Positions 10,289 through 64,000 are shown, counted from the first letter of the stretch. The stretch: 64,000 nt of DNA from TPA_inf: Saccharomyces (GCA_000146045.2 BK006948.2:608001-672000), one strand, 5' to 3'. Program-made: numbers and translations. Notes: generated by a model from the letters alone, not told the origin.

Positions 10289-11276
10289 TAGTTTTCTATG
10301 GTGGAGTGAAGCACAGCAGAAAGAACGTTAGGAACCTTAGCTAAAAGATAGAAAAAAAGAGCACTACAAAAATCTTATCCTCGATTTGAAATACTAATGT
10401 CGAGCCAGATCAAATTAAATGAAATCGAAATGATATAACGTTGCTCTTGCACGTGTATTTCGCTGCTTAGGAAAGTTGTTTCCACATATTATCTTTTGTA
10501 CGATTTTAAACAGTAAAATCGATGCATATTAAGGGAGGCCCAATACCCGCGGGCAGTAACCGCATCTTTGGAAATACCGGGTAATAATAAATGCCCGGGA
10601 AAAAAGAGCATAAAACAGAGAGGCGATATAGGAATGAATATGTGCTATTTACGGAAGGGAAAAACACTTATTGTTTTTCTGAAATGTGACACAGTAAAGT
10701 CCGTCATATACGGTTCTCCGTTGGGCGCTACCACACACATATATATAAGCCTGAATGCAGTAGACAAATTTCAGATATCATACAAAGGAAGCGTTCTCTG
10801 GGACCCCTTTCTATGTTTAGATGGTTCACTGAACTTGTTCGTTAACGTAAATATGTCTTCCTCTTTGATTCCAACAATGATATTATAAGGAAATTATCGT
10901 CACAATCTAATCAACAAGGACAAAGAAAAGAAAAAGTTGAGAGAGAGAACAAAAGTTCAAATCAAAGAAAAAAAAGAACATCAAATTACCTATTACAATA
11001 AACAATTAAGCCATACTCGCAACAATTTGCCATAATAGAAAGCAGCACCTCGTTGGCGCAGTCCCTTACATAGTACACAACATTTATCACTTCACACAAT
11101 CAGGAGTGGAACTCAATGGAAAACAACACCACACGTATGATCTTACTAATAAAAGAACATGAACGTTCCTCAGCGCGAACGTTCGCATTCTGCGCCTTCG
11201 AGCACAGGATAAGTTGCAGGAAGCCATCACATCTATGCAACGATTATCACGACACAACCTTGCCGCCGAGAAAACG

Positions 11277-11284
11277 TCCGTGGA
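11277..11284. promoter_or_regulatory. PDRE variant TCCGTGGA (Pdr1/Pdr3 response element) in the PDR5 promoter
   Basis: Exact 8-mer TCCGTGGA, about 560 bp upstream of the PDR5 ATG. One of four PDRE-type sites clustered at 11277-11534. Confidence 0.7.
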
Positions 11285-11348
11285 GAACCATTCGGTCGAT
11301 TGCTTCCCACGGAACGAGTGGACTGAAACTTAAGACTGCCCCTCTCTT

Positions 11349-11356
11349 TCCGCGGA
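11349..11356. promoter_or_regulatory. Perfect palindromic PDRE TCCGCGGA in the PDR5 promoter
   Basis: Exact TCCGCGGA in the context ctctttccgcggaatc. PDR5 is the classic Pdr1/Pdr3 target with several PDREs. Confidence 0.8.
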
Positions 11357-11464
11357 ATCGCTCATGCCGCGGTGCCACAACATTTTCAGATTTACTAAGA
11401 CTCCGGTGAGTGTGGGCTCACCCGCGGGTCGTGATCACGATTCAGCACCCTTTGGACTCGTGAT

Positions 11465-11526: not shown

Positions 11527-11534
11527 TCCGCGGA
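11527..11534. promoter_or_regulatory. Perfect PDRE TCCGCGGA in the PDR5 promoter, about 310 bp upstream of the ATG
   Basis: Exact TCCGCGGA in the context tgtctccgcggaactc. Confidence 0.8.
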
Positions 11535-11839: not shown

Positions 11840-14800
11840 ATGCCCGAGGCCAAGCTTAACAATAACGTCAACGACGTTACTAGCTACTCCTCCGCGTCTT
11901 CTTCTACTGAAAACGCTGCTGATCTACACAATTATAATGGGTTCGATGAGCATACAGAAGCTCGAATCCAAAAACTGGCAAGGACTCTGACCGCACAGAG
12001 TATGCAAAACTCCACTCAATCGGCACCCAACAAAAGTGATGCTCAGTCTATATTTTCTAGCGGTGTGGAAGGTGTAAACCCGATATTCTCTGATCCTGAA
12101 GCTCCAGGCTATGACCCAAAATTGGACCCCAACTCCGAAAATTTTTCTAGTGCCGCCTGGGTTAAGAATATGGCTCACCTAAGTGCGGCAGACCCTGACT
12201 TTTATAAGCCTTATTCCTTAGGTTGCGCTTGGAAGAACTTAAGTGCTTCTGGTGCTTCCGCAGATGTCGCCTATCAGTCAACTGTGGTTAATATTCCATA
12301 CAAAATCCTAAAAAGTGGGCTGAGAAAGTTTCAACGTTCTAAAGAAACCAATACTTTCCAAATCTTGAAACCAATGGATGGTTGCCTAAACCCAGGTGAA
12401 TTGCTAGTCGTTTTAGGTAGACCAGGCTCTGGCTGTACTACTTTATTAAAATCCATCTCTTCAAATACTCATGGTTTTGATCTTGGTGCAGATACTAAAA
12501 TTTCTTACAGCGGCTACTCAGGTGATGATATTAAGAAACATTTTCGTGGTGAAGTTGTTTACAACGCAGAAGCTGATGTACATCTGCCTCATTTAACAGT
12601 CTTCGAAACTTTGGTTACAGTAGCGAGGTTGAAAACCCCACAGAACCGTATCAAGGGTGTCGATAGGGAAAGTTATGCGAATCATTTGGCGGAAGTAGCA
12701 ATGGCAACGTACGGTTTATCGCATACAAGGAATACAAAAGTTGGTAACGACATCGTCAGAGGTGTTTCCGGTGGTGAAAGGAAGCGTGTCTCCATTGCTG
12801 AAGTCTCCATCTGTGGATCCAAATTTCAATGCTGGGATAATGCTACAAGGGGTTTGGATTCCGCTACCGCTTTGGAATTTATTCGTGCCTTAAAGACTCA
12901 AGCTGATATTTCCAATACATCTGCCACAGTGGCCATCTATCAATGTTCTCAAGATGCGTACGACTTGTTCAATAAAGTCTGTGTTTTGGATGATGGTTAT
13001 CAGATCTACTATGGCCCCGCCGATAAGGCCAAGAAGTACTTTGAAGATATGGGGTATGTTTGTCCAAGCAGACAAACCACCGCAGATTTTTTGACCTCAG
13101 TTACAAGTCCCTCTGAGAGAACCCTGAACAAAGATATGCTAAAAAAAGGTATTCATATACCACAGACCCCGAAGGAAATGAACGATTACTGGGTAAAATC
13201 TCCAAATTACAAAGAGCTAATGAAAGAAGTCGACCAACGATTATTGAATGACGATGAAGCAAGCCGTGAAGCTATTAAGGAAGCCCACATTGCTAAGCAG
13301 TCCAAGAGAGCAAGACCTTCCTCTCCTTATACTGTCAGCTACATGATGCAAGTTAAATACCTATTAATCAGAAATATGTGGAGACTGCGAAATAATATCG
13401 GGTTTACATTATTTATGATTTTGGGTAACTGTAGTATGGCTTTAATCTTGGGTTCAATGTTTTTCAAGATCATGAAAAAGGGTGATACTTCTACATTCTA
13501 TTTCCGTGGTTCTGCTATGTTTTTTGCAATTCTATTCAATGCATTTTCTTCTCTGTTAGAAATCTTTTCGTTATATGAGGCCAGACCAATCACTGAAAAA
13601 CATAGAACATATTCGTTATACCATCCAAGTGCTGACGCTTTTGCATCAGTTCTATCAGAAATACCCTCAAAGTTAATCATCGCTGTTTGCTTCAATATAA
13701 TCTTCTATTTCTTAGTAGACTTTAGAAGAAATGGTGGTGTATTCTTTTTCTACTTATTAATAAACATTGTCGCGGTTTTCTCCATGTCTCACTTGTTTAG
13801 ATGTGTTGGTTCCTTAACAAAGACATTGTCAGAAGCTATGGTTCCCGCTTCTATGTTATTGTTGGCTCTATCCATGTATACCGGTTTTGCTATTCCTAAG
13901 AAGAAGATCCTACGTTGGTCTAAATGGATTTGGTATATCAATCCGTTGGCTTACTTATTCGAATCTTTGTTAATTAACGAGTTTCATGGTATAAAATTCC
14001 CCTGCGCTGAATATGTTCCTCGTGGTCCTGCGTATGCAAACATTTCTAGTACAGAATCTGTTTGTACCGTGGTTGGAGCTGTTCCAGGCCAAGACTATGT
14101 TCTGGGTGATGATTTCATTAGAGGAACTTATCAATACTACCACAAAGACAAATGGCGTGGTTTCGGTATTGGTATGGCTTATGTCGTCTTCTTTTTCTTT
14201 GTCTATCTATTCTTATGTGAATACAACGAGGGTGCTAAACAAAAAGGTGAAATATTAGTTTTCCCACGCAGTATAGTTAAAAGAATGAAGAAAAGAGGTG
14301 TACTAACTGAAAAGAATGCAAATGACCCCGAAAACGTTGGGGAACGTAGTGACTTATCCAGCGATAGGAAAATGCTACAAGAAAGCTCTGAAGAGGAATC
14401 CGATACTTACGGAGAAATTGGTTTATCCAAGTCAGAGGCTATATTTCACTGGAGAAACCTTTGTTACGAAGTTCAGATTAAGGCCGAAACAAGACGTATT
14501 TTGAACAATGTTGATGGTTGGGTTAAACCAGGTACTTTAACAGCTTTAATGGGTGCTTCAGGTGCTGGTAAAACCACACTTCTGGATTGTTTGGCCGAAA
14601 GGGTTACCATGGGTGTTATAACTGGTGATATCTTGGTCAATGGTATTCCCCGTGATAAATCTTTCCCAAGATCCATTGGTTATTGTCAGCAACAAGATTT
14701 GCATTTGAAAACTGCCACTGTGAGGGAGTCATTGAGATTTTCTGCTTACCTACGTCAACCAGCTGAAGTTTCCATTGAAGAAAAGAACAGATATGTTGAA

Positions 14801-16375
14801 GAAGTTATTAAAATTCTTGAAATGGAAAAATATGCTGATGCTGTTGTTGGTGTTGCTGGTGAAGGTTTAAACGTTGAACAAAGAAAAAGATTAACCATTG
14901 GTGTTGAATTAACTGCCAAACCAAAACTGTTGGTCTTTTTAGATGAACCTACTTCTGGTTTGGATTCTCAAACTGCTTGGTCTATTTGTCAGCTAATGAA
15001 AAAGTTGGCAAATCATGGTCAAGCAATTCTATGTACTATTCACCAACCCTCTGCTATTTTGATGCAAGAATTCGATCGTTTACTATTTATGCAACGTGGT
15101 GGTAAGACTGTCTACTTTGGCGACTTGGGCGAAGGTTGTAAAACTATGATCGATTATTTTGAAAGCCATGGTGCTCATAAATGCCCTGCTGACGCCAACC
15201 CAGCTGAATGGATGCTAGAAGTTGTTGGTGCAGCTCCAGGCTCTCATGCAAATCAAGATTATTACGAAGTTTGGAGGAATTCTGAAGAGTACAGGGCCGT
15301 TCAATCTGAATTAGATTGGATGGAAAGAGAATTACCAAAGAAAGGTTCGATAACTGCAGCTGAGGACAAACACGAATTTTCACAATCAATTATTTATCAA
15401 ACAAAATTGGTCAGTATTCGTCTATTCCAGCAATATTGGAGATCTCCAGATTATTTATGGTCGAAGTTTATTTTAACTATTTTCAATCAATTGTTCATCG
15501 GTTTCACTTTCTTCAAAGCAGGAACCTCGCTACAGGGTTTACAAAATCAAATGTTGGCTGTGTTCATGTTTACGGTTATTTTCAATCCTATTCTACAACA
15601 ATACCTACCATCTTTTGTCCAGCAAAGAGATTTGTATGAGGCCAGGGAACGCCCCTCAAGGACTTTTTCTTGGATTTCATTTATCTTCGCTCAAATATTC
15701 GTGGAAGTTCCATGGAATATATTGGCAGGTACTATTGCTTATTTTATCTACTATTATCCAATTGGATTTTACTCCAACGCGTCTGCAGCTGGCCAGTTGC
15801 ATGAAAGGGGTGCTTTATTTTGGTTGTTCTCTTGTGCTTTCTACGTTTATGTTGGTTCTATGGGTCTGCTTGTCATTTCATTCAACCAAGTTGCAGAAAG
15901 TGCAGCTAACTTAGCCTCTTTGTTGTTTACAATGTCTTTGTCTTTTTGTGGTGTTATGACTACCCCAAGTGCCATGCCTAGATTTTGGATATTCATGTAC
16001 AGGGTTTCACCTTTGACTTATTTCATTCAGGCTCTGTTGGCTGTTGGTGTTGCTAACGTAGACGTCAAATGCGCTGATTACGAATTGCTAGAATTCACAC
16101 CACCATCCGGTATGACATGTGGGCAGTACATGGAACCATATTTACAACTAGCAAAGACTGGTTACTTAACTGATGAAAATGCCACTGACACCTGTAGTTT
16201 CTGTCAAATATCTACAACCAATGATTACTTAGCTAATGTCAATTCTTTCTACAGTGAGAGATGGAGAAATTATGGTATCTTCATCTGTTATATTGCATTC
16301 AATTATATCGCTGGTGTCTTTTTCTACTGGTTAGCAAGAGTGCCTAAAAAGAACGGTAAACTCTCCAAGAAATAA
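11840..16375 (+). CDS. PDR5: Plasma-membrane ABC multidrug efflux pump of the PDR subfamily (1511 aa)
   Basis: 1511-aa ORF with ATG at 11840. Two nucleotide-binding domains with Walker A motifs GRPGSGCTT and GASGAGKTT, and ABC signatures VSGGERKRVSIAE and LNVEQRKRLTIG. Arranged as NBD-TMD twice. PDRE cluster upstream. Confidence 0.97.
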   Translation: MPEAKLNNNVNDVTSYSSASSSTENAADLHNYNGFDEHTEARIQKLARTLTAQSMQNSTQSAPNKSDAQSIFSSGVEGVNPIFSDPEAPGYDPKLDPNSENFSSAAWVKNMAHLSAADPDFYKPYSLGCAWKNLSASGASADVAYQSTVVNIPYKILKSGLRKFQRSKETNTFQILKPMDGCLNPGELLVVLGRPGSGCTTLLKSISSNTHGFDLGADTKISYSGYSGDDIKKHFRGEVVYNAEADVHLPHLTVFETLVTVARLKTPQNRIKGVDRESYANHLAEVAMATYGLSHTRNTKVGNDIVRGVSGGERKRVSIAEVSICGSKFQCWDNATRGLDSATALEFIRALKTQADISNTSATVAIYQCSQDAYDLFNKVCVLDDGYQIYYGPADKAKKYFEDMGYVCPSRQTTADFLTSVTSPSERTLNKDMLKKGIHIPQTPKEMNDYWVKSPNYKELMKEVDQRLLNDDEASREAIKEAHIAKQSKRARPSSPYTVSYMMQVKYLLIRNMWRLRNNIGFTLFMILGNCSMALILGSMFFKIMKKGDTSTFYFRGSAMFFAILFNAFSSLLEIFSLYEARPITEKHRTYSLYHPSADAFASVLSEIPSKLIIAVCFNIIFYFLVDFRRNGGVFFFYLLINIVAVFSMSHLFRCVGSLTKTLSEAMVPASMLLLALSMYTGFAIPKKKILRWSKWIWYINPLAYLFESLLINEFHGIKFPCAEYVPRGPAYANISSTESVCTVVGAVPGQDYVLGDDFIRGTYQYYHKDKWRGFGIGMAYVVFFFFVYLFLCEYNEGAKQKGEILVFPRSIVKRMKKRGVLTEKNANDPENVGERSDLSSDRKMLQESSEEESDTYGEIGLSKSEAIFHWRNLCYEVQIKAETRRILNNVDGWVKPGTLTALMGASGAGKTTLLDCLAERVTMGVITGDILVNGIPRDKSFPRSIGYCQQQDLHLKTATVRESLRFSAYLRQPAEVSIEEKNRYVEEVIKILEMEKYADAVVGVAGEGLNVEQRKRLTIGVELTAKPKLLVFLDEPTSGLDSQTAWSICQLMKKLANHGQAILCTIHQPSAILMQEFDRLLFMQRGGKTVYFGDLGEGCKTMIDYFESHGAHKCPADANPAEWMLEVVGAAPGSHANQDYYEVWRNSEEYRAVQSELDWMERELPKKGSITAAEDKHEFSQSIIYQTKLVSIRLFQQYWRSPDYLWSKFILTIFNQLFIGFTFFKAGTSLQGLQNQMLAVFMFTVIFNPILQQYLPSFVQQRDLYEARERPSRTFSWISFIFAQIFVEVPWNILAGTIAYFIYYYPIGFYSNASAAGQLHERGALFWLFSCAFYVYVGSMGLLVISFNQVAESAANLASLLFTMSLSFCGVMTTPSAMPRFWIFMYRVSPLTYFIQALLAVGVANVDVKCADYELLEFTPPSGMTCGQYMEPYLQLAKTGYLTDENATDTCSFCQISTTNDYLANVNSFYSERWRNYGIFICYIAFNYIAGVFFYWLARVPKKNGKLSKK

Positions 16376-20359: not shown

Positions 20360-22491
20360 TCAATCTGATGTTAAATCGACCACTTCCGAGTTATCTTGAG
20401 CCGATGTGTTAAAGTCATTAGTTTGGGCCAGAGTTTTATTCATTATGGCGTGATTTGCCTGTGGTCTCCGTTTCATAAGGGTGGCGTATGGATTCTTCGG
20501 AATGTAGATAGAAACATTAGAATGCCTTCTCTTCCTAATTTTTCCATCATCCCCATGGCCGCTGGTGCTCACGTGTATATATGGAGGGAGATGTGCCGCC
20601 GATGTGGTCCTTGTTGGTAGTTCAGTTTCTGCTTCTGAATTTGGGTCCACAGGGGGGATTGGAGGCAAATCACCTTCGATTCCCAAAAGATTACGATCTT
20701 GAGCTGTGGTATTGTAATTAGGTCCGTAGGGGTTTCTCTGCGCTTCCGTTTGATTAGTCAAATTTTGTAGAACAGCCGGTAATAGTGGCGTTGATGGCCC
20801 TCTATTGTAGAATATTCTGCTGTCACCATTCGTCGCCGTAACGAAAGAATTAATACTGCTATTGTTCGTCGGTGTGTCATTTATATTTGTAGTAGCGCCT
20901 TGGTTCAAAAATGACCTCATTTGAAAAGCATCTTGATAATTATCTTGGTCCATAGTTGGAGAACCTTTCGGCGTTGATGTATGATTGGGGTTGTAGTCAC
21001 TGGATCCTTCCGATTCTGAGGGAAATATATCTGCTCTTAATTGGTCATTACGGGGGTTCACGTGCGTTGGGAAGCTTTTACTAGCCGGAATAAAGGCTTC
21101 ATCATCTGAGCTATCCAGAGATATTATTTCGGGTTCGTTGTGGTTTGAACCATTACGCAAATTAGTATCGAAGGCATTTCGGCTGTCATAATCTTGCTCT
21201 TGTTTGACAGTGCCTTGGTTCTCGTTTTTCACACTGTGATTTTGGTTAACAGTATCCGTTATAACGGCCGAACTATTATGAATCGGTTTCCATGAGCCAT
21301 CAACAGATATCTCAACTTGCTCAACATCTTCATTGCAATTTTGAATAATATTATCTACAAATTCGGAAATCTTCAACTGGTCGAATTTTATAGGGTGTTG
21401 ACAAATCGGACACTGCCATGTAGGGACTTGTGACTGAGAGTGAAGAAACCAGAGAGCATCAAAACATTGGATATGCTTACATTGGTCAGTCTTCGCCGGA
21501 TACTTCATCCTTGTACAAGATATAGGACATTGCAAACTCAGCACCGTGGAGGTTGTAATAATATCGTCATCATCTTGCTCATTCAAGGTTCTTTTGATGT
21601 ATGCTGTGGTGGCTTGCTTGATAATTTTGGGCCTTTTCAGAATTTTCCCCAGAAGAGCTTCAGGTGAAAAAACTTCCACTATAAAGCAACTTATAGAGTA
21701 CTCTTTATCAATATTGAGATAATGTAAGTCTAGGTGATTCATCTCGGTCGGTACTTTAAGATAAGGCGTTAAATTTGCAGGATTACCTGTCCCATTTTGT
21801 TTCTTTAAACCTTTCACGTTGTCCTCTAGTTTGGTGCCATTAAACACTAGTTCACAGGGATACGGGAAATCTATTGCCTCATGGCCCACAGTTTCATATA
21901 TAAACGGTATTGAAAAGCCAGAAAACAAATACAGTTTATAACTCTTGTTAGATTTCAAAAGATCATGATTAGATTTACTTACCTTGAACTTCATTTTTGT
22001 ACAACCTCTTCCTGCAGATTGCTTCAATTTTTTATTGGCATCCGGTATTTGTACTATTGGTTTGTAAAACGGTGAGGTAAAAGAATATGCTAAGGCCTGT
22101 TGTTGGGAATAAGGTGGCAATGCAGTACTCTGGAGAGCTGTCACGGGTAGTTGCCCCGATGCTACAGGATGCTTGAACGCACCCGTCTTTAAAGTTTCCC
22201 AAAGGGTAGAGTATTTTGGTAATGATGAGTTTATCCTTACTTTCGCGATAAGAATCTTAATAGCCTTAGGCCTCCACGGATCTATATGTCCAATATCACA
22301 GGATTTTCTTAAGAATTGTTTTATTCGGTCTTGTAAGACAGCCTTTTTGCCCGTTATGGATAAATCCAGAGATTTGCATATTTGCTTTAACTCTAGAACC
22401 TTTAATTGTTCCATTTCATTTATTGCATCTTTTATTTCATTTATGAGTCCACCACCTGTGTTGGACAAAGGGTTCGTAAACATATAACTGG

Positions 22492-22522
<31 letters not shown>

Positions 22523-22540
22523 TGACATGACACTTGCCAT
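20360..22540 (-). CDS. NFI1: SUMO E3 ligase of the Siz/PIAS family with SAP and SP-RING domains (726 aa)
   Basis: 726-aa ORF, ATG checked at 22538-22540. N-terminal poly-Asn, SAP-like region, and the SP-RING CPISCTRMKYPAKTDQCKHIQCFDALWFLHSQSQVPTWQCPICQ. Confidence 0.85.
22493..22522. repeat. (ATT)10 trinucleotide microsatellite encoding the N-terminal poly-Asn tract of Nfi1
   Basis: Ten perfect ATT units on the + strand (AAT codons on the - strand), directly after codons 1-6 of NFI1. Confidence 0.9.
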
Positions 22541-28938: not shown

Positions 28939-30558
28939 TCACACATTCTGGTGACTCAATTTTCTGAGTACATCAGGATATGCCCTAAAAATCTCATCAA
29001 ACCTATGAGGGTAAGAATGATGGAAGACCTCCGGGTCATTACCAAGAGCAACAAAGAAAGTTGCAGTACCGGATCTAATGGCTTCTGTTGCAATGTTGCA
29101 AATCTGTAAAGCAATAACAAATGAGAATGCCATTAGGGCGCCGTTGTAAGCGCCGTTCGAATTGTATTGAGGCGAGGTAAACCTTAGATACAAGAACGTG
29201 AACAAAGCGGTCATATAACTAGCAAACATTGAAAATAGACCCAGTGCAATGTTAATTAAATTATCATTGATTAGGGCGTCCATTCCCTTTTCTCTTAACA
29301 TATACCAGGTTTCTTTGGCCGCTCTTAAATACGGTTTACCATAAAGAGCGATGAACGAGTATGCATAATGATTGAAATACTCGGCGAGCCACTTCAGAAA
29401 GCCGATAATCCAGTCAAACACCATAAACAAAATCTGGATGGCAATTTGACCGCCACCGCTGGAGGTAACATCGTGTCTGATCATTTGCAATATTTGTCTC
29501 AACAGGTCGATCAAAGCGACTAGCAAGGACCCAAAGCAAATGGAACCGAACGAGTAAGTCATGGCTCTCTTCAATGCTCCAAATGCGGGCCACCTTGGCA
29601 TTCCTTGGTCAGACTTTGACATATAATACCAGCTGCCAAAGACGCCAGAAATAACACAATGTATGACGTTTCTTATTACTTCAGAGATATAATAGCCGCA
29701 GAAAAAAACCACAACCAAAACACCAATCAATTTGGAATGCGAACAGCTGCCACCAGAAACGTCACAGCCGCCATTCGAGCTATTAGGATCGTACTTTATG
29801 TACGTAGCCACAATGACTGCTGAGAAGAGAAACCCAAACGCACTAGCAACTAGCGCTCCAACAAATGAAACAAAGAAGATCTGTGGGCATTTCTTCATGG
29901 CATCGACGACGACTTTCAATACCGCCACAGAAAGGGGAATTCTAGACCTCATACCCCAGTAGCACCACGCGGTCATGAACGTGAAGACTAAAAACACAAT
30001 ACCTGCAGACCAGTACCTCAAAGACATGTACATGATGGCAGTCCCAAGAGAAGCCACTAGGTTGATGACCATACCGCAATATATAAACTGCTTCGGAAAA
30101 ATTCGACAAAGTGTGAGGCCCAAAACGGAGAATACTAGGGCAATAATGCACACGAAAACTAGCAGGATGGCAGCATTGGTGTTCAGCGTACCAGTATTCA
30201 CACCATCGTATATTCCGGAACCCGTACTGCTATAGGTTTGGGACCACGCTCTTAAGGTTATGGCAGCAATGGCGATGAATCCGCCTACCGTGCATAGGAA
30301 AAAAATGGTAAATGGCCAATCGTTCCACCTGGGCTTGTTGTCATTTTCAGTAGGAAAGGCCTCGTCGAAGCTCCCTATAGGAGCCCCACTCGTTTTGGAA
30401 TTTAGATTGTAATATTGATCCTGTCTAAAATGGTACGGCGTCTGGCCATCGTTGACATTCGCCGCGGCAGAGTTCTCGGAAGAACTGGGCGGCCTATGGT
30501 TGGGATCATATGCTGGAGGAGGTTGCGGAGGCCTCTCGTATTTTTCATTCAATGGCAT
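28939..30558 (-). CDS. PNS1: Choline-transporter-like (CTL/SLC44) plasma-membrane protein (539 aa)
   Basis: 539-aa polytopic ORF with ATG at 30556-30558. Pro/Tyr-rich N-terminus and about 10 TM segments. Matches YOR161C. Confidence 0.85.
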   Translation of the reverse strand: MPLNEKYERPPQPPPAYDPNHRPPSSSENSAAANVNDGQTPYHFRQDQYYNLNSKTSGAPIGSFDEAFPTENDNKPRWNDWPFTIFFLCTVGGFIAIAAITLRAWSQTYSSTGSGIYDGVNTGTLNTNAAILLVFVCIIALVFSVLGLTLCRIFPKQFIYCGMVINLVASLGTAIMYMSLRYWSAGIVFLVFTFMTAWCYWGMRSRIPLSVAVLKVVVDAMKKCPQIFFVSFVGALVASAFGFLFSAVIVATYIKYDPNSSNGGCDVSGGSCSHSKLIGVLVVVFFCGYYISEVIRNVIHCVISGVFGSWYYMSKSDQGMPRWPAFGALKRAMTYSFGSICFGSLLVALIDLLRQILQMIRHDVTSSGGGQIAIQILFMVFDWIIGFLKWLAEYFNHYAYSFIALYGKPYLRAAKETWYMLREKGMDALINDNLINIALGLFSMFASYMTALFTFLYLRFTSPQYNSNGAYNGALMAFSFVIALQICNIATEAIRSGTATFFVALGNDPEVFHHSYPHRFDEIFRAYPDVLRKLSHQNV

Positions 30559-31559
30559 GACGTATTAATGTACCGATAATTATGGTCACTATTGATGGCC
30601 CTAATCGGAAATATGCACCTTCAAGTTTTTTATAATGCGCAATTAAAAAAAGTAAGAAAGGAATATAGAAGCATTCAATTGCTATGATTACCAATAAGTA
30701 GCGATTACGACTGAACTACATTCAACGAATATCCGCATATCAATATATATATAAGGGCAAGCTACGTATAAGGATATATATGTGATGATAATGTTATATA
30801 TAGCTGGCAATTACGCCATTACGCAAACAGAAAACCCCTTAAACCCCTCAAGGATCTACCGAAGGAAGAATCCTGTTAGAAGGGAACATACCAACCACAA
30901 AAAAAAAGAAAAAAAAGCATTCTGCAGTAATTAGCCGTAGTGGACTTTGTTTTTCTTTCTGCAAATGGCCGTGCGGTGTCGGGCGGGGTCTCTCACTCAG
31001 TACCATTACGTGTGATAACTCCGCTGGCGAGGTGCGCCGCTCCCTGCAGGCTCTCCGAGAGGAAATCTCTTCGCGTATGCTTATCCTTCATCAAGACGTC
31101 TTGGTAAGGACAACATTGCTCTACAGGATGTCGCCGCGTATGTCGCTCGAAGGGTAGTGAATGGCTGCATGTAGTACATAATTTGCGAAAAACAGTGGGC
31201 TTGCCAAAATCTGCCTCAGGTGACAAGCCATTTTTCCAGTGGGATGATCTACTCGTGTGTAAGACATGTCGAAACGCACGCTGTTGCATGAAAAGTAGTC
31301 GTACGGTTGTATGTGTGGTGTACGGGTGTAAAAGTAGTCAAGCGTATGGCGGTAAGCAGCGATTCAGCAATTCTATATCTGAATAAAGTGAACTTTTGTA
31401 CCATCTTTAGTAGCCAGTTGATTCATTTTTTTCTGTCAGGTGCGGCCCATCATCGAAGTGGGTTGATAATCTGGGTAATTATATAAACATTTTGATCATA
31501 AAAAAGAACTAAAAAAAGGCTTCAAAGTAGTCGCGCCGCGAGATTGCCTCGACTTAGCA

Positions 31560-33992
31560 TTAATTGTCTTTGTAATCATCGAAAAGAGTGGAAAATTCAG
31601 ATTGATTAATCAACTCTTCCCAGCCTGAGTTATAATTTGCCCAAAATTCATCTGTCAGCATCTGAATGATCTCTGATTGACTCTTTGCATGGTTCTTAGT
31701 TTCACCAGGCGAGGGTAACATTGGAATTATTGAGGGCGTGGGCGTTGGAACTGCAAGGCTGAGATCCCGCTGCCTATCACTCACAATTTTAGCTTCTGAT
31801 GATGGATTATCGCTCTGCGGATCTAGTTCTTGTTTGATTTGTGCTAGCCATGTTTCCTCGGTCAACTTTCTGAATTCAATAACGTTGCCAAGAATAGTCC
31901 TATAGGTCCTTTCAATAGCTAGCTCTATCACAAATTGTGATGATCTATGCATTGTGCGTATTAATTCTTTATTTCCGACCGTGAACAAGCGATCGAAGAT
32001 TGACGAGTACAAGCTCATTGCTGTACCTAAAGATAGATCCTTGTCTAAAGGAACAGTCAATTTCGTCAAATCCGACCATCCAACTTCCATATCGTTGGAT
32101 AGACATAGTCCATTTTCGAAAAGCGTCAACTTAAAGTAGATCAGAGAACAAAAAAACACCAATGTTTTGGAAAAAAGCCCTGCCGTGAGGCTCATTGATA
32201 ACGCCATATGTGGCGGTAAGTGCGGGTTGGAGGCTTCGAATTTCTCTGGGTAAAGTGCTTTGTCGATACGATAGCATCGAATTGTGGTATTCACAATGAT
32301 GGAAAAATTGATCAAAACCAATTGAAACGTATTATTTTTGGATTCTATGTTTCTGACTTTCAGCACAGAATGTATTAGTGCATAAAACGACAATAATAGT
32401 CCGACTGCCATACTTAAAATTCTACTTTCCCTTAATGGAACTTCTTCCGATATATTTTCACCTGTGTAATGTCCAAGTGGACCAAGTTCTTCTTCTACAA
32501 AATTGATAATTCGCTTGGAATAAGCTTTCAAATCCGGGAATTTATCTCTATCATAAAGAGTTAACAACATTGGCCTTGTAAGTTTTAAATATCTTTTCAG
32601 CTTCCCCTCATATGTTTTACTTTTACTATTCAATATGCAATGATCTTGGTTTTCGTCTAGATAAAATTTGTTAATCAATAAGGGTCTACCAACGTTACAA
32701 GATATGTTATAATCGATAAATATTGCCATTAACCAGACATTTTCTAAACTTTCGATGCTACCCATAAAAACCTCATGTTCCTTGAAAGTTTCTCTAATGT
32801 TTAAATGCAACCCTATTGTAGTAACCGTAGTAACTAAACATTCATTTATATTAACCAAATCGGAGCCATCTCCACCGAATGAATATGTTTCACGATGGTA
32901 GTAGAAAAGTATTAACATTTGTGCACGCTCAATGTAGAACACCTTAGCGGTGGAGGCCCCCTTTAGTAAAGTAAAGAACTTCTCAATTGGGGTTGGGACA
33001 TCTGTATGGAAGTATTTCAGACATAGGATTAATAGTATCACAGCAGCTTTGTAATAATTTTTCTTTGGATTGGATAAAATATAAACTATGGATCTGTCAC
33101 CTTCCGCCTTTACCTCTTTTTCGGGCATGAAATAATCTAAAAAGTCTCTTCTAACTTTTGCCTTATCAAGAATCACGTTGATCTCATTGCATGCTCCATC
33201 ATTAAAGAAATCATCTAAAATAGACAAAGCTTTGTTATATGATGGTAGGAAACGACATATCTGTTTGATTAATGGATCTGGCTGCCAATCCGACTCATCC
33301 AAAAGGCCTAGTTCCCTGCACATCGTTTTTTGGTTGTTTTGCTTCCATTTATTTCTTTCTACTTTAACCTTCGCCCATAATTGTTTATATTTTTCAATGA
33401 ACCCCCAATTACTATTTGCAATTTGGGTTCTCATAGAAGTGGGGCCGTATAGTGTTGATCTTCCGGAATGTTTACTTTGTAGGTAGTACCGGTCGGCATA
33501 TGGATTTATTACACCATCGGGTAATGGAGATGAAGTTTCAGTAGAACCTCTACCTACACTAGTGCCTAAAGGAGGGAAATTTGGCGAAGTGTACATGGAG
33601 CTCGCAGACGAATTAGTGTTTTTTTCAGCTTCTAGAATACGTATTTTGTTTTCTAGTTCTTCAACTTTCTTAAGTAAATCGGCGTTAGGATAGGGACCAT
33701 AGGTAGCTTTCTTTTCGATGTTTTTGTTGAATTCTTCAGCATATTGACAGGTTGTTAAGTTTCTAGAAATGCATGTAGAACACATAGGTTTTTGCTGATC
33801 ACAACGAAGTTTTCTCCTTCTGCAAAAGCCACAAGATTTTATAAGCTTGTTTCTCTTCTTACCGCTAGTAGAAGTTGGTGTTCCTGAGTTACTTCCATTG
33901 GCTCCACCGGCCGTACTATTACTATTATCGCTTGGCGGCGTAACGTTGGTGGCCTGGAAACTTCCCAACAAAGCATCGCTTCTTCTTTTCAT
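31560..33992 (-). CDS. YRR1: Zn2Cys6 zinc-cluster transcription factor for multidrug resistance (810 aa from the first ATG)
   Basis: The track ORF (852 aa) starts at a TTG at 34116-34118; the first ATG is at 33990-33992, giving 810 aa. Zn2Cys6 motif CGFCRRRKLRCDQQKPMCSTCISRNLTTC. Confidence 0.85.
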   Translation of the reverse strand: MKRRSDALLGSFQATNVTPPSDNSNSTAGGANGSNSGTPTSTSGKKRNKLIKSCGFCRRRKLRCDQQKPMCSTCISRNLTTCQYAEEFNKNIEKKATYGPYPNADLLKKVEELENKIRILEAEKNTNSSASSMYTSPNFPPLGTSVGRGSTETSSPLPDGVINPYADRYYLQSKHSGRSTLYGPTSMRTQIANSNWGFIEKYKQLWAKVKVERNKWKQNNQKTMCRELGLLDESDWQPDPLIKQICRFLPSYNKALSILDDFFNDGACNEINVILDKAKVRRDFLDYFMPEKEVKAEGDRSIVYILSNPKKNYYKAAVILLILCLKYFHTDVPTPIEKFFTLLKGASTAKVFYIERAQMLILFYYHRETYSFGGDGSDLVNINECLVTTVTTIGLHLNIRETFKEHEVFMGSIESLENVWLMAIFIDYNISCNVGRPLLINKFYLDENQDHCILNSKSKTYEGKLKRYLKLTRPMLLTLYDRDKFPDLKAYSKRIINFVEEELGPLGHYTGENISEEVPLRESRILSMAVGLLLSFYALIHSVLKVRNIESKNNTFQLVLINFSIIVNTTIRCYRIDKALYPEKFEASNPHLPPHMALSMSLTAGLFSKTLVFFCSLIYFKLTLFENGLCLSNDMEVGWSDLTKLTVPLDKDLSLGTAMSLYSSIFDRLFTVGNKELIRTMHRSSQFVIELAIERTYRTILGNVIEFRKLTEETWLAQIKQELDPQSDNPSSEAKIVSDRQRDLSLAVPTPTPSIIPMLPSPGETKNHAKSQSEIIQMLTDEFWANYNSGWEELINQSEFSTLFDDYKDN

Positions 33993-34252: not shown

Positions 34253-34260
34253 TCCGCGGA
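34253..34260. promoter_or_regulatory. Perfect PDRE TCCGCGGA in the divergent YRR1-DDP1 promoter, 261 bp upstream of the YRR1 ATG
   Basis: Exact TCCGCGGA in the context taatttccgcggattt. YRR1 is reported to be a Pdr1 target and autoregulated. Confidence 0.65.
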
Positions 34261-34713: not shown

Positions 34714-35307
<594 letters not shown>

Positions 35308-55582: not shown

Positions 55583-55811
55583 TAAGGGCCATTCATCCCA
55601 CAATCTCAATATCAGTATATTCTCTTATTTATTAATTGAGGTTGCGTATTTATGTTTTCTTTGTGGTATATAATATATCATTATTTATTGCATTTTAAAA
55701 CTTTTTTTTTCATTATTTTTCTCTGTTGAATGCAGTCAACATCTCCCTTAATATTCGATACTCATCTTTAATACTATCAGCAAAAAGTTTAAGATAAAAT
55801 ATTCTTAAAAA

Positions 55812-55885
55812 CGATTTCGCCCAGGATCGAACTGGGGACGTTCTGCGTGTTAAGCAGATGCCATAACCGACTAGACCACGAAACC
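55812..55885 (-). tRNA. tV(AAC): tRNA-Val, anticodon AAC
   Basis: Minus-strand read GGTTTCGTGGTCTAGTCGGTTATGGCATCTGCTTAACACGCAGAACGTCCCCAGTTCGATCCTGGGCGAAATCG, followed by TTTT as the Pol III terminator. Cloverleaf with anticodon loop CTTAACAC (AAC), an A-box in the D arm and a B-box GTTCGATCC. No intron. Confidence 0.93.
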
Positions 55886-55994
55886 ACTATTTGTTGAAAT
55901 CTTTAACAAGCGAGGAAACTTTAGTGAAATATTAAAAGGACTAAACCGGACCGGTTCTTCTATTTCTACATATCTAATCACCCAATGTAGTTTT

Positions 55995-59859: not shown

Positions 59860-62241
59860 TCAAAGTCGCCATCGATCAACCTCTTGGGAAAGGATGGGTG
59901 GAGATGAACTGAAAGTATTTATAAATGGGTTGGTATTTCTGTGATGATCAATCAAAGCGTCATCACTGAGACATGCAGATTTATCATCCTCATCTAAGTA
60001 AAAGTGAGGAGGAAACGAATTATTGTCTATTTCTCCCGCAATCTGATTACTATCACTATCTTCGTTTTCATAGTCAAAAATATCAGAAGCTTGGGAAATT
60101 CCCGAGAAAGGAGCTGCGCTCGAGAATGAAGTAGATTGAAGATTCGGCGACGAGGGATGATTGTAGAAACAATGGGAATCCAATAATGATTGATAGTTGA
60201 CATATTTGAGATCACTCTTCCCATTCGAATGATCGTTTAGTATTGTACTGGCCCGGTTCTGAGATGAAGATGGTGCACTGGTGCTGTTTGCAGATGATTT
60301 ATTCTCCTTAACTGTTCCATTTTCTTTTGAGGGTTTGATTAACGTGTCTGTGGAATTGTTGATAGTCGAAGTTTTATTATTTTCGTCCATAGTAGTATCT
60401 GTAATAACACTTTGTTTGTCCTCATATGAATCCTCCAAAGAGGTAACCAAATTTTTACTATCGTTGTTATTAATAGTATTCTCATTTCTAAAGCCTCCGA
60501 AGAATGATGGAGTAGAAATCTCCGGCATTAGGGAATTTAATGAATGATTAAACAAATTGGCCGTTGTGAAGGTATCATTAGGTTCATATAGGTTCGCATA
60601 ATCAAAATTATCGAGCTCAGTAAGTGGGAAACTACAAGAGGCGGAAGAAGAATTTGTGGAGGAATTGTTTGAAGAAGCAAAGGATAATGAAGAGGAAATG
60701 GAGGAAGATGATGAAGAATATGACGATGAACCAGAATATAGTGATTGATGTTGAGATCCTAATATTGGTAGGTCAATACTATTACTGGCCGTTGGTGGGG
60801 CGAGCACATTGTTCTTATCTTTAGTTATTTTACCAGTTCTGGCGGTGTCGTTAGCCAAAGCAGAAGAAGGAGGAGGAGGGGTAGCATTTTCAAGTTTATC
60901 TAAAACAACGTTCAATCTCTTGGGCTTAACCCAGCTTGTCGTATCATTATGATAAAGATGTTTCAATGGAGATGTATTATAGTAATCTGTATCCTCGCTG
61001 AACTTTCTTGATTGAGGTAAAAACCTTGAAAGAGTGGGATTCGAGGAGACGAACCTTGCTTTCATTTCCTTCGGCGACATGGCTGCATCTGTTTGAGAAG
61101 CAGGCTCGACGACAACTGGAATCTTTTCCTTCGTTTCACCGCCCTTCTTGAAGGTAGTCATGAAAAGGTGATAATTTTTACCATTATTATTATCATAATA
61201 TGTTTCATTATTAACGTCATACCTGCAGCATAATTCAATGTTGAGTGGACAGCTGCTTGTATTCTTTTCCATAGTAATGATTCTTTTGATGAGTAAAATG
61301 TACTTCAAACTATTCAAATCAATTGTAAATTTAAACTCATCAACATTCGAATTTATCGTTCTATTAAAGTTGGCGGTAACGTAATGAATATCTCTCCAAG
61401 AGTTGAACGTAAATTTAATTTCCAAATACTTTTCAAAACTCAAGTTTTTGACGTACACTAGACCTGTAATTTTGCTTGAATCATCGCCTAATTGAGTGAG
61501 AGAATGCAGTTTTACATTTTGGCCATTTAAGTACTTTGTGAGCTGACCTTGCAAATCGGAGGCCGATAATGTTTTGGTAAATAGTGGAGGGGCTATCTTG
61601 AAGGGAACCAAGTCTGTGCAGTGAAGTTTCCAATCACATATATTTGTTGCCTGAGTAGCCAGTGAAGAGGTAGCAGATTTATTTTCAGAAGTTTTTCCTC
61701 GGGTAGATAAAGAATTATAGGTATACCCATACTCGGCCTGGCTATTGATGTGCTCGTCAATATCATCCTCATCTTCTGAATCATAAAGGTCCAACTTGAA
61801 CATGTTGTTTAAGGAATTCATATAACGAAACTTCTTTTCATTTTTCAGCAAGTTTGTGACCAACGAAGAATCATTGAACCAGCAGTCCTCATTGTTGAAA
61901 AGCTGGACGTCATCAGCAGCGGTATTGCTATCAACAGGGGATAATGTGGGTGAGTTTTCATTTGAGATAGAACTTGGCTCCGCGTTTTTATCAAATCTCT
62001 TAACAGTTGTTAATTCAATAGCAAAACGTACATTTTTCTCAGGTGATGTGCAGAAAATTTCTGACTTTGATCTTGAAATAGGTTCAGGGTGTGATATTTT
62101 CAAGGATGACTTTAATTTCCTAATCGGAGGGTGAGTGGGGCGACTTATAAGGCTGTCTGACATACTTTTAATCAAATCGTTATGAGGGAAAGAAGGTCTC
62201 GCCTTAGCTGGCGATAACGTAGTAGCAGTTTGTATTACCAT
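59860..62241 (-). CDS. GAC1: Glc7/PP1 glycogen-targeting regulatory subunit with a CBM21 starch-binding domain (793 aa)
   Basis: 793-aa ORF with ATG at 62239-62241. Central CBM21-like block (VYVKNLSFEKYLEIKFTFNSWRDIHYVTA), N-terminal PP1-docking region, long Ser/Asn-rich C-terminal low-complexity tail. Confidence 0.85.
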   Translation of the reverse strand: MVIQTATTLSPAKARPSFPHNDLIKSMSDSLISRPTHPPIRKLKSSLKISHPEPISRSKSEIFCTSPEKNVRFAIELTTVKRFDKNAEPSSISNENSPTLSPVDSNTAADDVQLFNNEDCWFNDSSLVTNLLKNEKKFRYMNSLNNMFKLDLYDSEDEDDIDEHINSQAEYGYTYNSLSTRGKTSENKSATSSLATQATNICDWKLHCTDLVPFKIAPPLFTKTLSASDLQGQLTKYLNGQNVKLHSLTQLGDDSSKITGLVYVKNLSFEKYLEIKFTFNSWRDIHYVTANFNRTINSNVDEFKFTIDLNSLKYILLIKRIITMEKNTSSCPLNIELCCRYDVNNETYYDNNNGKNYHLFMTTFKKGGETKEKIPVVVEPASQTDAAMSPKEMKARFVSSNPTLSRFLPQSRKFSEDTDYYNTSPLKHLYHNDTTSWVKPKRLNVVLDKLENATPPPPSSALANDTARTGKITKDKNNVLAPPTASNSIDLPILGSQHQSLYSGSSSYSSSSSSISSSLSFASSNNSSTNSSSASCSFPLTELDNFDYANLYEPNDTFTTANLFNHSLNSLMPEISTPSFFGGFRNENTINNNDSKNLVTSLEDSYEDKQSVITDTTMDENNKTSTINNSTDTLIKPSKENGTVKENKSSANSTSAPSSSQNRASTILNDHSNGKSDLKYVNYQSLLDSHCFYNHPSSPNLQSTSFSSAAPFSGISQASDIFDYENEDSDSNQIAGEIDNNSFPPHFYLDEDDKSACLSDDALIDHHRNTNPFINTFSSSPPILSQEVDRWRL

Positions 62242-62767
62242 GGTTTAAGCTCTTGTTCTATAGTAAGTTCCAGTTCCAACTTGTTTACAAAAATGAAGTT
62301 AAAATACAAAAATAAAAAATTCTCACCATCTACTAAGTACCAGCCTCTTATAGACAGTTAATGTGATGTATTATTATATCGATGATTAGCTGTAGCAATA
62401 ACTGTGTTTAATGCCAGAGGAGAGAAAAGAAAAAAAATATAGTTTTGGTAATGGATCAAAAAAGTTACAGAAGTAATCTTAAATCTCTCTTTTTGTTTTA
62501 TCGTTATCCGTTCCTTAACAAAAGTAAGAAAAAAGATGTAAGATAGACTATGGAAATAGTATATTATGCGTTATGTAATGGAAGGAAACTACAGATACGT
62601 ATATATATATATCAAATGCAGTGAAACTAAGGATACAAAAGGAGGTGAATGATGCCTGAAATAGCAATCCCTTATATAACAAATCACGTATAAGCATGAG
62701 AAAAGCTTTCCCCAGATTGCGAGAAAAAAAAAAAGATAGGGAGGGAAGGGAATCTAAGATATCAAAG

Positions 62768-62787
62768 AAAAAAAAAAAAAAAAAAAG
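62768..62787. repeat. 20-nt poly(dA:dT) tract in the GAC1 upstream region
   Basis: Uninterrupted run of 20 A. Probably nucleosome-excluding promoter architecture. A second 15-A run lies at 59735-59749 and a 12-T run at 54017-54028. Confidence 0.85.
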
Positions 62788-63137
62788 TAAAATTAGAGAG
62801 GAAAGACTGCGACAAATAGAGAAAAACTGTTGATTCGGGTTGTATTCGTTTCTTTTAGCAGTAGTTTTCTGTTGATTTGACGTACGTTGATTCACCCCCT
62901 GATGTTTTTTAGGCCACTGCCCCACTCTGCTGCAGATAACCGCCCATAACCCAGTGAGTATTTTTTTCGCCGCGTCCTCCTTGATTGTCTGTCTGGTGTT
63001 CTTTTAGCTTGGCTGTTACCAGCCTGCAGATCCACGCCACGCCATCTCACTTACGGACGAGGACGCTCTTCATTTGCTGCATTCATAAGAAGGGGCAAAA
63101 AAAAGAGGTTTGTCGCCGCTTTGGAGCAGCGCGTCTT

Positions 63138-63145
63138 TCCGCGGA
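63138..63145. promoter_or_regulatory. Orphan perfect PDRE TCCGCGGA in a GC-rich island about 900 bp upstream of GAC1
   Basis: Exact palindromic TCCGCGGA with the same T-rich 5' flank (gtctttccgcggaag) as the PDR5 PDRE at 11349 (ctctttccgcggaat) and the YRR1 PDRE (aatttccgcggatt). Function unverified. Confidence 0.35.
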
Positions 63146-64000
63146 AGAAATATAGTTTTCGGACCGAGAAGAAGCCACCACATCCCACTACTCGCTCAAT
63201 ACGATGTGTGGAGAATGCATGGTCTCTACGCATTTTGTATGACGGAGCTTACGTAAGCCGTTTCCTGCGGGGTGCGTCAATAGACCTTGACACTGCTGTG
63301 GTACTCCCGCCTTTCCTTTGTTTGCGTAACAGATCTCGGAAATTACATGGTGCGTGCTCGGGCTTTTTGTGATAAGAGTACTCCAGCACCGATTATTGGT
63401 GTTTACGGAGGCGCTTCGTAGCATTGCAGATACACACAAAACTAAGAGTAATAAAAATAGCTACGTAAAACAAGATTGGTTAAACTTTATTGTGCCGCTT
63501 GTGTACATTCGTATTCCGAAAAAGTAAGGTGAAATCACCGTCACCGATGCTCATGCAGCTACTCCTCACCTTTTAAGGTTGAAATCCGCTTGTCCTTGAG
63601 TAATATTCCTACGTATTATGGAAATAATGTACGAATCTGTGTCTATGTATGCCTCATAATTACAACAGTGTTGTTGCTTCTTCCTTATTTAGCCATAGAT
63701 ACGCTGGTTTGCGTTCTCCGCCCCCGCACCTACCATTTCCTTGGCGAAGTAGTTATATGGGGAAAACTCAACAACTTGTTACATAATCCACCAATAATTC
63801 AGATGAAAGCACATACAAGAAAATAAAAAGGTAAGTAATGACGTTCAGCACAATGGAGTTGTTAATTTCTGGCCAATGCTTAGTATGCTCTCCACTCTTC
63901 CCTTTAGTGGGTTCGAATTACAATCAATCAGCTTCATGGTGGAGAAATCGATCGTGGCTTTACTCTTGCCTATGGTGACGCTACCATTCTTTACATTTTC

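Follow-up and report, generated by a model that had tools for sequence, protein, structure and literature searches.

A probable Pdr1 response element in the distal upstream regulatory region of Saccharomyces cerevisiae GAC1

A perfect copy of the palindromic 8-mer TCCGCGGA lies at 63138-63145 of a 64-kb window (the whole stretch of DNA analysed here, 64,000 nucleotides) that spans the Saccharomyces cerevisiae chromosome from PDR5 to GAC1. Other copies of the same 8-mer in this window are found in the promoters of the drug-resistance genes PDR5 and YRR1. The copy at 63138 was described in a first-pass annotation as an orphan element, sitting in an unannotated GC-rich block and controlling either GAC1 or an unannotated short transcript. 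The question raised by this locus is whether the site is a Pdr1 response element at all and, if so, for which transcript and with what effect. In this report, we address these points using the sequence of the window, alignments with the other sensu stricto species and published maps of Pdr1p and Pdr3p occupancy.

The element and its neighbours

The genes that frame the question can be readily recognised. Pdr5 is encoded by a 1511 amino acid ORF at 11840-16375 (+ strand) that gives a full-length match to PDB 7p03. An 810 amino acid ORF at 31560-33992 (- strand) possesses a Zn2Cys6 domain, consistent with Yrr1, and is divergent from a gene encoding a 188 amino acid NUDIX protein, the pattern expected for YRR1/DDP1. 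The presumed target gene, GAC1, is the ORF at 59860-62241 (- strand), encoding a 793 amino acid protein with a CBM21 domain whose nearest database relatives are the Gac1 proteins of other Saccharomyces species. On the far side of the element, the SYC1 stop codon is located at 63845 and SYC1 itself continues beyond the window edge, leaving a SYC1-GAC1 intergenic region of 1603 bp (62242-63844). The PDRE is inside this region. It is separated from the SYC1 stop codon by 700 bp and from the GAC1 ATG, which it precedes, by 897 bp, in good agreement with the ~900 bp given in the first-pass annotation, and the upstream regulatory sequence in which it lies is that of an RNA polymerase II gene.

The core at 63138-63145 is an exact match to the type A PDRE TCCGCGGA, a palindromic zero-gap everted CGG repeat, and the ten nucleotides at 63137-63146 match the extended consensus TTCCGCGGAA perfectly. 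With a perfect type A core and a perfect extended consensus, the site is a bona fide Pdr1-type element, as had been proposed. Exact matching confirms that TCCGCGGA is present in the 64-kb window exactly four times, at 11349, 11527, 34253 and 63138. The expectation of about one chance occurrence per 64 kb against which this count was originally set proves too high, however, as dinucleotide-preserving shuffles of the window give a value of 0.21, with none of 100 shuffles reaching four copies. The excess comes from the three known functional sites (11349, 11527 and 34253), and a single extra copy of the 8-mer per 64 kb has a p value of ~0.19. The TTCCGCGGAA 10-mer is a stronger test than the bare 8-mer: two matches are found in the window (at 11348 and 63137) against an expectation of 0.04.

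The sequences flanking the core have also been considered. A T-rich flank common to all four sites had been claimed. This is seen at 11349, 34253 and 63138, the three sites that carry TTTCCGCGGA, but not at 11527, which reads GTCTCCGCGGAA. The longer sequence CTTTCCGCGGAA is common to 11349 and 63138 only and all 13 nt of the flanked element at 63134-63146 (TCTTTCCGCGGAA) recur in the PDR5_3 site, at 11345-11357. Biochemical work has shown that Pdr1p binds with higher affinity when the core is flanked by T on the 5' side and by A on the 3' side, and its affinity is mainly set by 12 bp comprising the core and 2-bp flanks. Lone 18-mer type A PDREs are able to direct Pdr1-dependent transcription of a reporter.

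Two further short sequences are found close by. On the - strand, 11 bp from the PDRE, GTCCGAAAA at 63156-63164 contains a single CGG triplet and is a possible Pdr1 half site; both the half-site concept and the preference for TTCCGAAA come from published work on Pdr1 binding. The TCCG core of this sequence is kept in the alignment only in S. cerevisiae, S. paradoxus and S. kudriavzevii, and it is possible, judging from the sequence, that Pdr1 makes use of it. Adjoining the PDRE, ACGCG within GACGCG (63130-63134, - strand) is invariant in all six species.

Conservation of the GC-rich island and of the motif

Composition, conservation and the presence of invariant blocks identify the GC-rich island in which the PDRE is embedded (62880-63440, - strand; ~0.50 GC) as a distal regulatory region of GAC1 that is itself conserved and lies ~200-800 bp further upstream than a conserved TATA box. 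The unusual composition noted initially is borne out: the segment 63040-63440 has a GC content of 0.494, whereas that of the window as a whole is 0.375, and it ranks within the upper 0.7% when compared with every 400-bp segment and within the upper 5% when the comparison is restricted to non-coding segments. Only two other non-coding stretches in the window exceed 0.5 GC, one of which is the PDRE-bearing PDR5 promoter.

To follow the region across the genus, the orthologous SYC1-GAC1 regions of two S. paradoxus strains, two S. mikatae assemblies, S. eubayanus and S. uvarum were aligned, together with the S. kudriavzevii sub-genome of strain VIN7 and a second S. cerevisiae assembly that is identical to the window. 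The alignments reveal short invariant blocks of 8-14 bp with variable spacers between them. This is the pattern of factor-binding sites and therefore counts against the island being coding sequence or a transcript. The small overlapping ORFs that had been reported here (63051-63233, - strand; 63121-63372, + strand; 63188-63439, - strand) do exist in a mechanical table-11 listing, but two of the three begin with TTG, a start accepted by the bacterial-code ORF lister, and they are not conserved. Projection of these three ORFs, and of two others nearby, onto the five other species revealed stops or frameshifts already in S. paradoxus, and none of the ORFs was kept in the other Saccharomyces species. 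A hidden small protein was rejected on this basis; the small ORFs of the island are chance ORFs. A hidden structured RNA gene was rejected also: Rfam gave no match at E<=1 on 61500-64000 and, in a search of the whole window at gathering score, none in the island, and the only ARAGORN prediction is a tRNA-Val far from the island. Since the ORFs are unconserved, Rfam is without a match and the alignments contain invariant blocks, the island is an ordinary conserved distal regulatory region of GAC1 rather than a hidden or unannotated gene, and the proposal that an unannotated short transcript is the target of the PDRE is not upheld.

The conserved sequences of the region can be followed from the SYC1 side towards GAC1. 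The invariant block GAGATCTG (63330-63337, - strand) is followed by a second, TATTGACGCAC (63272-63282, - strand), that adjoins CCCCGC at 63267-63272 (GCGGGG on the + strand, presumably a Mig-type sequence), and then by the palindrome TTACGTAA (63249-63256), which is kept in five of the six species and which we take to be recognised by bZIP (Yap/ATF-type) factors. Beyond the PDRE, GCCAAG (63008-63013, - strand), presumably a Rim101/PacC-type core, is kept in all six species. The most conserved stretch of the island, at 62920-62943 (- strand), lies in a bin that is 0.70 invariant and comprises GCGGTTATCTGCA followed by GTGGGG, again assumed to be Mig type; GCGGTTATCTGCA itself (62931-62943) is an invariant 13-mer with GATAA and CTGCAG inside it. 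Two conserved motifs come next, AGGGG (62896-62900, - strand) and ACGTCA (62878-62883, - strand), which we take to be an STRE and a CRE half site, respectively, and then the invariant blocks GAATCAAC (62829-62836) and CGCAATCTGGGGAA (62708-62721, - strand), the latter including CTGGGG, also presumed to be Mig type. Between the island and the TATA box is an A19 tract (62768-62786, + strand; T19 in the GAC1 sense) that probably functions as a nucleosome-excluding spacer, and a second tract, A11, is found at 62724-62734. Finally, the invariant TATATAAGGGA (62668-62678, - strand) contains the TATA box at -437 relative to the ATG and overlaps the PDS-type sequence TAAGGGAT; the PDRE is 460 bp upstream of this TATA box. 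Of the motif-factor assignments made in the island, literature support was found for Mig alone, GAC1 being among the genes redundantly repressed by Mig1 and Mig2 (PMC2631581).

Conservation of the motif as well as the island, to which the first-pass annotation had looked for support, is found in part. The island is conserved and the perfect 8-mer is present in four of the six sensu stricto species, namely S. cerevisiae (-904), S. paradoxus (-901 in one strain and -891 in the other), S. mikatae (-919) and S. eubayanus (-914), in the last of which it lies in an apparent 13-bp insertion beside the aligned position. It has been lost from S. kudriavzevii and S. uvarum, which read TCTTGGAA and TCCGTGAG, respectively. 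Scoring by strict alignment column under-calls the PDRE, which is shifted by 1-2 nt in S. mikatae and by 13 bp in S. eubayanus, and this was replaced by a benchmark in which the exact 8-mer is found within +/-25 aligned columns. Intergenic 8-mers survive at a rate of 15% in S. mikatae and 12% in S. eubayanus; 12.8% of S. cerevisiae intergenic 8-mers, the PDRE among them, are found in at least three other species, and the particular pattern of presence in S. paradoxus, S. mikatae and S. eubayanus is shown by only 4.4%. The PDRE is better kept than ~87% of intergenic 8-mers, therefore, but falls clearly short of the invariant blocks: the 50-bp bins that contain it are 0.24-0.38 invariant, which is among the lowest values in the island, versus 0.60-0.70 at the peaks.

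Upstream of the GAC1 homologues of three more distant yeasts, no consistent PDRE of types A-D was seen, with none in N. bracarensis or N. castellii and a single type D element at -564 in N. dairenensis. Deep conservation of a Pdr1-GAC1 link was rejected, as the PDRE matches in these distant yeasts are not above chance. Upstream of SYC1, a neighbouring PDRE shows similar gain and loss from species to species.

Occupancy by Pdr1p and possible consequences for GAC1

Occupancy by Pdr1p in vivo, which the first-pass annotation proposed to look up, is found in published target lists obtained by two methods, CUT&RUN and ChIP-exo. The supplementary table of Pdr1p CUT&RUN targets (Sup. Table 1) lists GAC1 with PDR5, YRR1, DDP1 and SNQ2 and places it in the class whose peak contains a type A PDRE (Buechel & Pinkett, bioRxiv 10.1101/2023.08.11.553033). 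[quoted passage not shown] As the 63138 copy is the sole TCCGCGGA within 5 kb of GAC1, the type A peak must include the 63138 site. A PDRE is present in only 12% of the 792 Pdr1p CUT&RUN peaks and, in those that do contain one, the median distance between peak centre and motif is 29 bp (Buechel & Pinkett). In ChIP-exo, GAC1 is a Pdr1 target only in 40 mM acetic acid (Lenitz et al. 2025, PMC12016514). The signal, measured as the mean count over TSS +/-1 kb rather than at a summit, is 38.8 for GAC1, compared to ~35.7 for the lowest listed target, 451 for PDR5 and 419 for SNQ2. Highly expressed genes abound in the acetic-acid Pdr1 target list, and 54 of the 90 acid-only Pdr1 targets are in the Yap1 lists of the same study. 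GAC1 is not in the Yap1 lists, which argues against a generic hyper-ChIPable artefact. According to Table S5 of that study, GAC1 had not previously been recorded in YEASTRACT as a Pdr1 target (PMC12016514). For Pdr3p, CUT&RUN in log phase gave only seven peaks genome-wide, a small number that the authors attribute to low Pdr3p abundance; five of these are named and GAC1 is not among the five.

Taken together, these results make it very probable that Pdr1p binds the site at 63138-63145. The label of orphan does not fit an element that lies in the GAC1 upstream region and is assigned to GAC1 in Pdr1p occupancy data; the Pdr1 site at GAC1 is already catalogued in published maps, as a minor target.

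Several observations in the literature bear on the expression of GAC1. Only seven genes are shared by every nonylphenol data set, and these include GAC1 as well as PDR5, RSB1 and GRE2, which are classical targets of Pdr1. GAC1 is up 2.45 in the nonylphenol RNA-seq table, whilst mycotoxin treatments induce it ~6-fold within a broad stress response. Induction by nonylphenol and by mycotoxins is in both cases part of a broad stress response and is circumstantial as regards a link to Pdr1, and the same can be said of the trichothecene sensitivity that results from gac1 deletion. In the literature searched, no change in GAC1 mRNA is reported in PDR1/PDR3 gain-of-function or null strains. The site is also solitary and ~460 bp from the TATA box, whereas strong Pdr1 targets carry clusters of sites, a difference that speaks against regulation.

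Our best overall explanation, to which we would give a probability of about 0.6, is that 63138-63145 is a genuine high-affinity type A Pdr1 response element in the distal regulatory region of GAC1. A Pdr1p dimer would contact both everted CGG triplets of CCGCGG via its Zn2Cys6 domains, with the T-rich 5' flank and the A 3' flank predicted to contribute affinity, and the published occupancy maps suggest that Pdr1p sits on 63138-63145 in vivo. Xenobiotic-bound Pdr1 recruits Mediator through Med15/Gal11. At GAC1, Pdr1p activated in this way may recruit Mediator to provide a modest drug or stress input to transcription, layered on what would be the dominant nutrient and stress control exerted by the neighbouring, better-conserved elements. 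That Pdr1p measurably regulates GAC1 we consider a little short of an even bet, and the Pdr1 input to GAC1 is probably modest at most.

The main rival to this explanation is opportunistic binding, in which a consensus exposed in an open, factor-dense region is occupied by Pdr1p with nothing measurable resulting for any transcript. Such binding would account for the lack of expression evidence tying GAC1 to Pdr1/Pdr3 in the literature searched, for a ChIP-exo signal near the threshold and for the loss of the motif twice within the genus whilst neighbouring blocks are invariant; the PDRE near SYC1, too, has been gained and lost across species. The authors of the CUT&RUN study emphasise that neither occupancy nor affinity is a good guide to transcription and that the Pdr1 target lists in the literature do not agree. 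Against this stand the retention of the exact 8-mer in S. mikatae and S. eubayanus in the face of low 8-mer survival (15% and 12%), flanks at the site that favour activity as well as affinity and the co-induction of GAC1 with PDR5, RSB1 and GRE2 by nonylphenol. On balance, inert binding appears somewhat unlikely.

The remaining three rivals are minor. [quoted passage not shown] Direct occupancy evidence was found for Pdr1p alone, however, with none placing the other factors at GAC1, and far fewer genes are regulated by these factors, making their use of the site highly improbable. Less probable still is that the motif arose by chance in a stretch rich in CpG and GC and is not specifically bound, in which case the published assignments would be artefacts of matching peaks to genes. 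The frequency of the bare 8-mer (p ~0.19 for one extra copy per 64 kb), the higher local chance in a GC-rich context and a ChIP-exo metric averaged over TSS +/-1 kb would all permit this, but GAC1 is flagged by two independent methods, one of which classes genes by the PDRE within the peak, the 10-mer has an expectation of only 0.04 and the motif is conserved in four species. The least probable of all is that the target of the PDRE is a short transcript missing from the annotation, or a small protein, encoded within the island. Mechanical ORFs of 60-83 codons do overlap the site and the island is conserved, but it is conserved as short invariant blocks and variable spacers, as in factor-binding sites; the ORFs are interrupted already in S. 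paradoxus, two of them have TTG starts, Rfam is without a match and the only conserved TATA box is directed at GAC1.

If regulation of GAC1 through a genuine Pdr1 response element were to be confirmed, a carbohydrate-storage and PP1 branch would be added to the pleiotropic drug response, and the presence of the site in four species and its loss in two would provide a natural experiment in binding-site turnover. A confirmed link would represent an incremental advance rather than a changed understanding, the GAC1 site being one of the many minor targets of Pdr1p with a single PDRE that genome-wide occupancy studies have listed. A more ambitious proposal, which we think unlikely, is that Pdr1 provides a direct, lineage-specific connection between the xenobiotic response and the targeting of PP1. 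Drug-activated Pdr1 would raise Gac1 and thereby redirect Glc7 to glycogen synthase as part of drug tolerance, and possibly also towards Hsf1-linked functions, with PDREs appearing and disappearing between the upstream regions of GAC1 and SYC1 in the different Saccharomyces species. Were this the case, S. kudriavzevii and S. uvarum would be natural 'unwired' controls without the GAC1 site.

Comparison with known Pdr1 targets and related factors

The closest relative of the GAC1 site in the window is found at PDR5. The PDR5 elements are numbered outwards from the gene and PDR5_4 corresponds to AAACGTCCGTGGAGAACC at 11272-11289, from which it follows that the twin at 11349 (11349-11356) is PDR5_3, the tightest binder of the Pdr1p DNA-binding domain among the four PDR5 elements. 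PDR5_3 and the GAC1 site have the same 13 nt, and hence the same type A core and favourable flanks, and PDR5_3 is likewise occupied by Pdr1p in vivo. The settings of the two sites are different, however. PDR5_3 is one of four clustered PDREs at 310-560 bp from the ATG, whereas the GAC1 site is solitary and ~900 bp away. The PDR5 PDREs are bound by both Pdr1p and Pdr3p and direct strong, proven Pdr1/Pdr3-dependent transcription, whilst the GAC1 site gives a weak signal at 460 bp from its TATA box and has a putative output only.

The PDRE of the YRR1/DDP1 divergent promoter (34253-34260) is also a solitary perfect TCCGCGGA and belongs to the same CUT&RUN type A class. It is much closer to its gene, 261 bp from the YRR1 ATG, and has T rather than A as its 3' flank. 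Regulation of YRR1 by Pdr1 is stated in the literature, whereas that of GAC1 is putative; the YRR1 PDRE, unlike the GAC1 site, is not called in the acetic-acid ChIP-exo lists. The sites of Yrr1, Pdr8 and Rdr1, factors whose flank preferences are poorly defined, have the same CCGCGG core geometry as the GAC1 site.

The GAC1 site also resembles those of the peripheral single-PDRE targets among metabolic and stress genes. ALD6, YGP1, MIG2, XBP1, HXT3 and SGA1 all have CUT&RUN type A peaks, as does GAC1, and like GAC1 these peripheral targets are outside the classical transporter and lipid regulon. YGP1 and HXT3, together with CMC4, ICY1, LAC1 and CAP1, recur in the acetic-acid ChIP-exo set, as does GAC1. 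GAC1 differs from the peripheral targets only in having the full 10-bp consensus and in the unusually distal place of its element within a long conserved region.

PDREs upstream of SYC1

Upstream of SYC1, S. paradoxus, S. eubayanus and S. uvarum each carry a second perfect PDRE, 110-120 bp from the ATG and within the sequence context TTCTTCCGCGGAAAG (L010:1710-1717, L001:202-209, L005:1707-1714 and L008:1665-1672 in the fetched SYC1-GAC1 regions). The S. cerevisiae counterpart, which lies outside the window (near L011:2710-2725), is degenerate (TCTTCGGGA). Of the two sites, S. uvarum thus carries only the one at SYC1, and S. cerevisiae only the one at GAC1. The distribution of the two sites across species looks like binding-site turnover within a single neighbourhood.

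The SYC1-upstream element is also degenerate in S. mikatae (TCCGTAGA), a species that carries an additional perfect TCCGCGGA approximately 1.3 kb upstream of SYC1 (L012:505-512 and L003:427-434, both orthologous loci), directly 3' of a DCI1-like enoyl-CoA hydratase gene. Across the whole 10.4-kb locus from the S. kudriavzevii sub-genome of strain VIN7 (L004), no perfect PDREs are seen within ~4 kb either side of GAC1; the SYC1 gene call at this locus is truncated, at only 103 amino acids.

Surroundings of GAC1 in Saccharomyces and Naumovozyma

Two long homopolymer tracts on the + strand, A19 (62768-62786) and A11 (62724-62734), separate the conserved island from the GAC1 TATA box. Alignment reveals that these tracts differ in length among species, with the adjoining blocks being invariant.

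SYC1 is not the direct upstream neighbour of the GAC1 homologue in Naumovozyma dairenensis or N. castellii; that place is taken by a gene for a large Zn2Cys6 fungal transcription factor (L014:1-913 and L015:1-2425 in the two homologue loci). A type D PDRE, GTTCCGCGGGAAA, lies at -564 of the N. dairenensis GAC1 homologue.

Other features of the window

PDRE-like sequences elsewhere in the window include a type B sequence, TCCACGGA, at 22273-22280 inside a 726 amino acid ORF (20360-22540, - strand) and a one-mismatch variant, ACCGCGGA, at 34750-34757, just within the start of a NUDIX (DDP1-like) ORF. One-mismatch variants as a class barely exceed chance (12 observed, 7.8 expected).

ARAGORN predicts a tRNA-Val (AAC) at 55811-55886 (- strand), whereas an Rfam search of the entire window at the gathering threshold returned no matches, tRNA family included. 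This probably reflects a filter or tool discrepancy.

A further non-coding GC-rich island (0.515 GC) is located at 30961-31360, flanked by a 539 amino acid ORF (28939-30558, - strand) and the 3' end of YRR1. This island, which contains neither a perfect PDRE nor an Rfam match, is similar in composition to the islands found upstream of GAC1 and PDR5.
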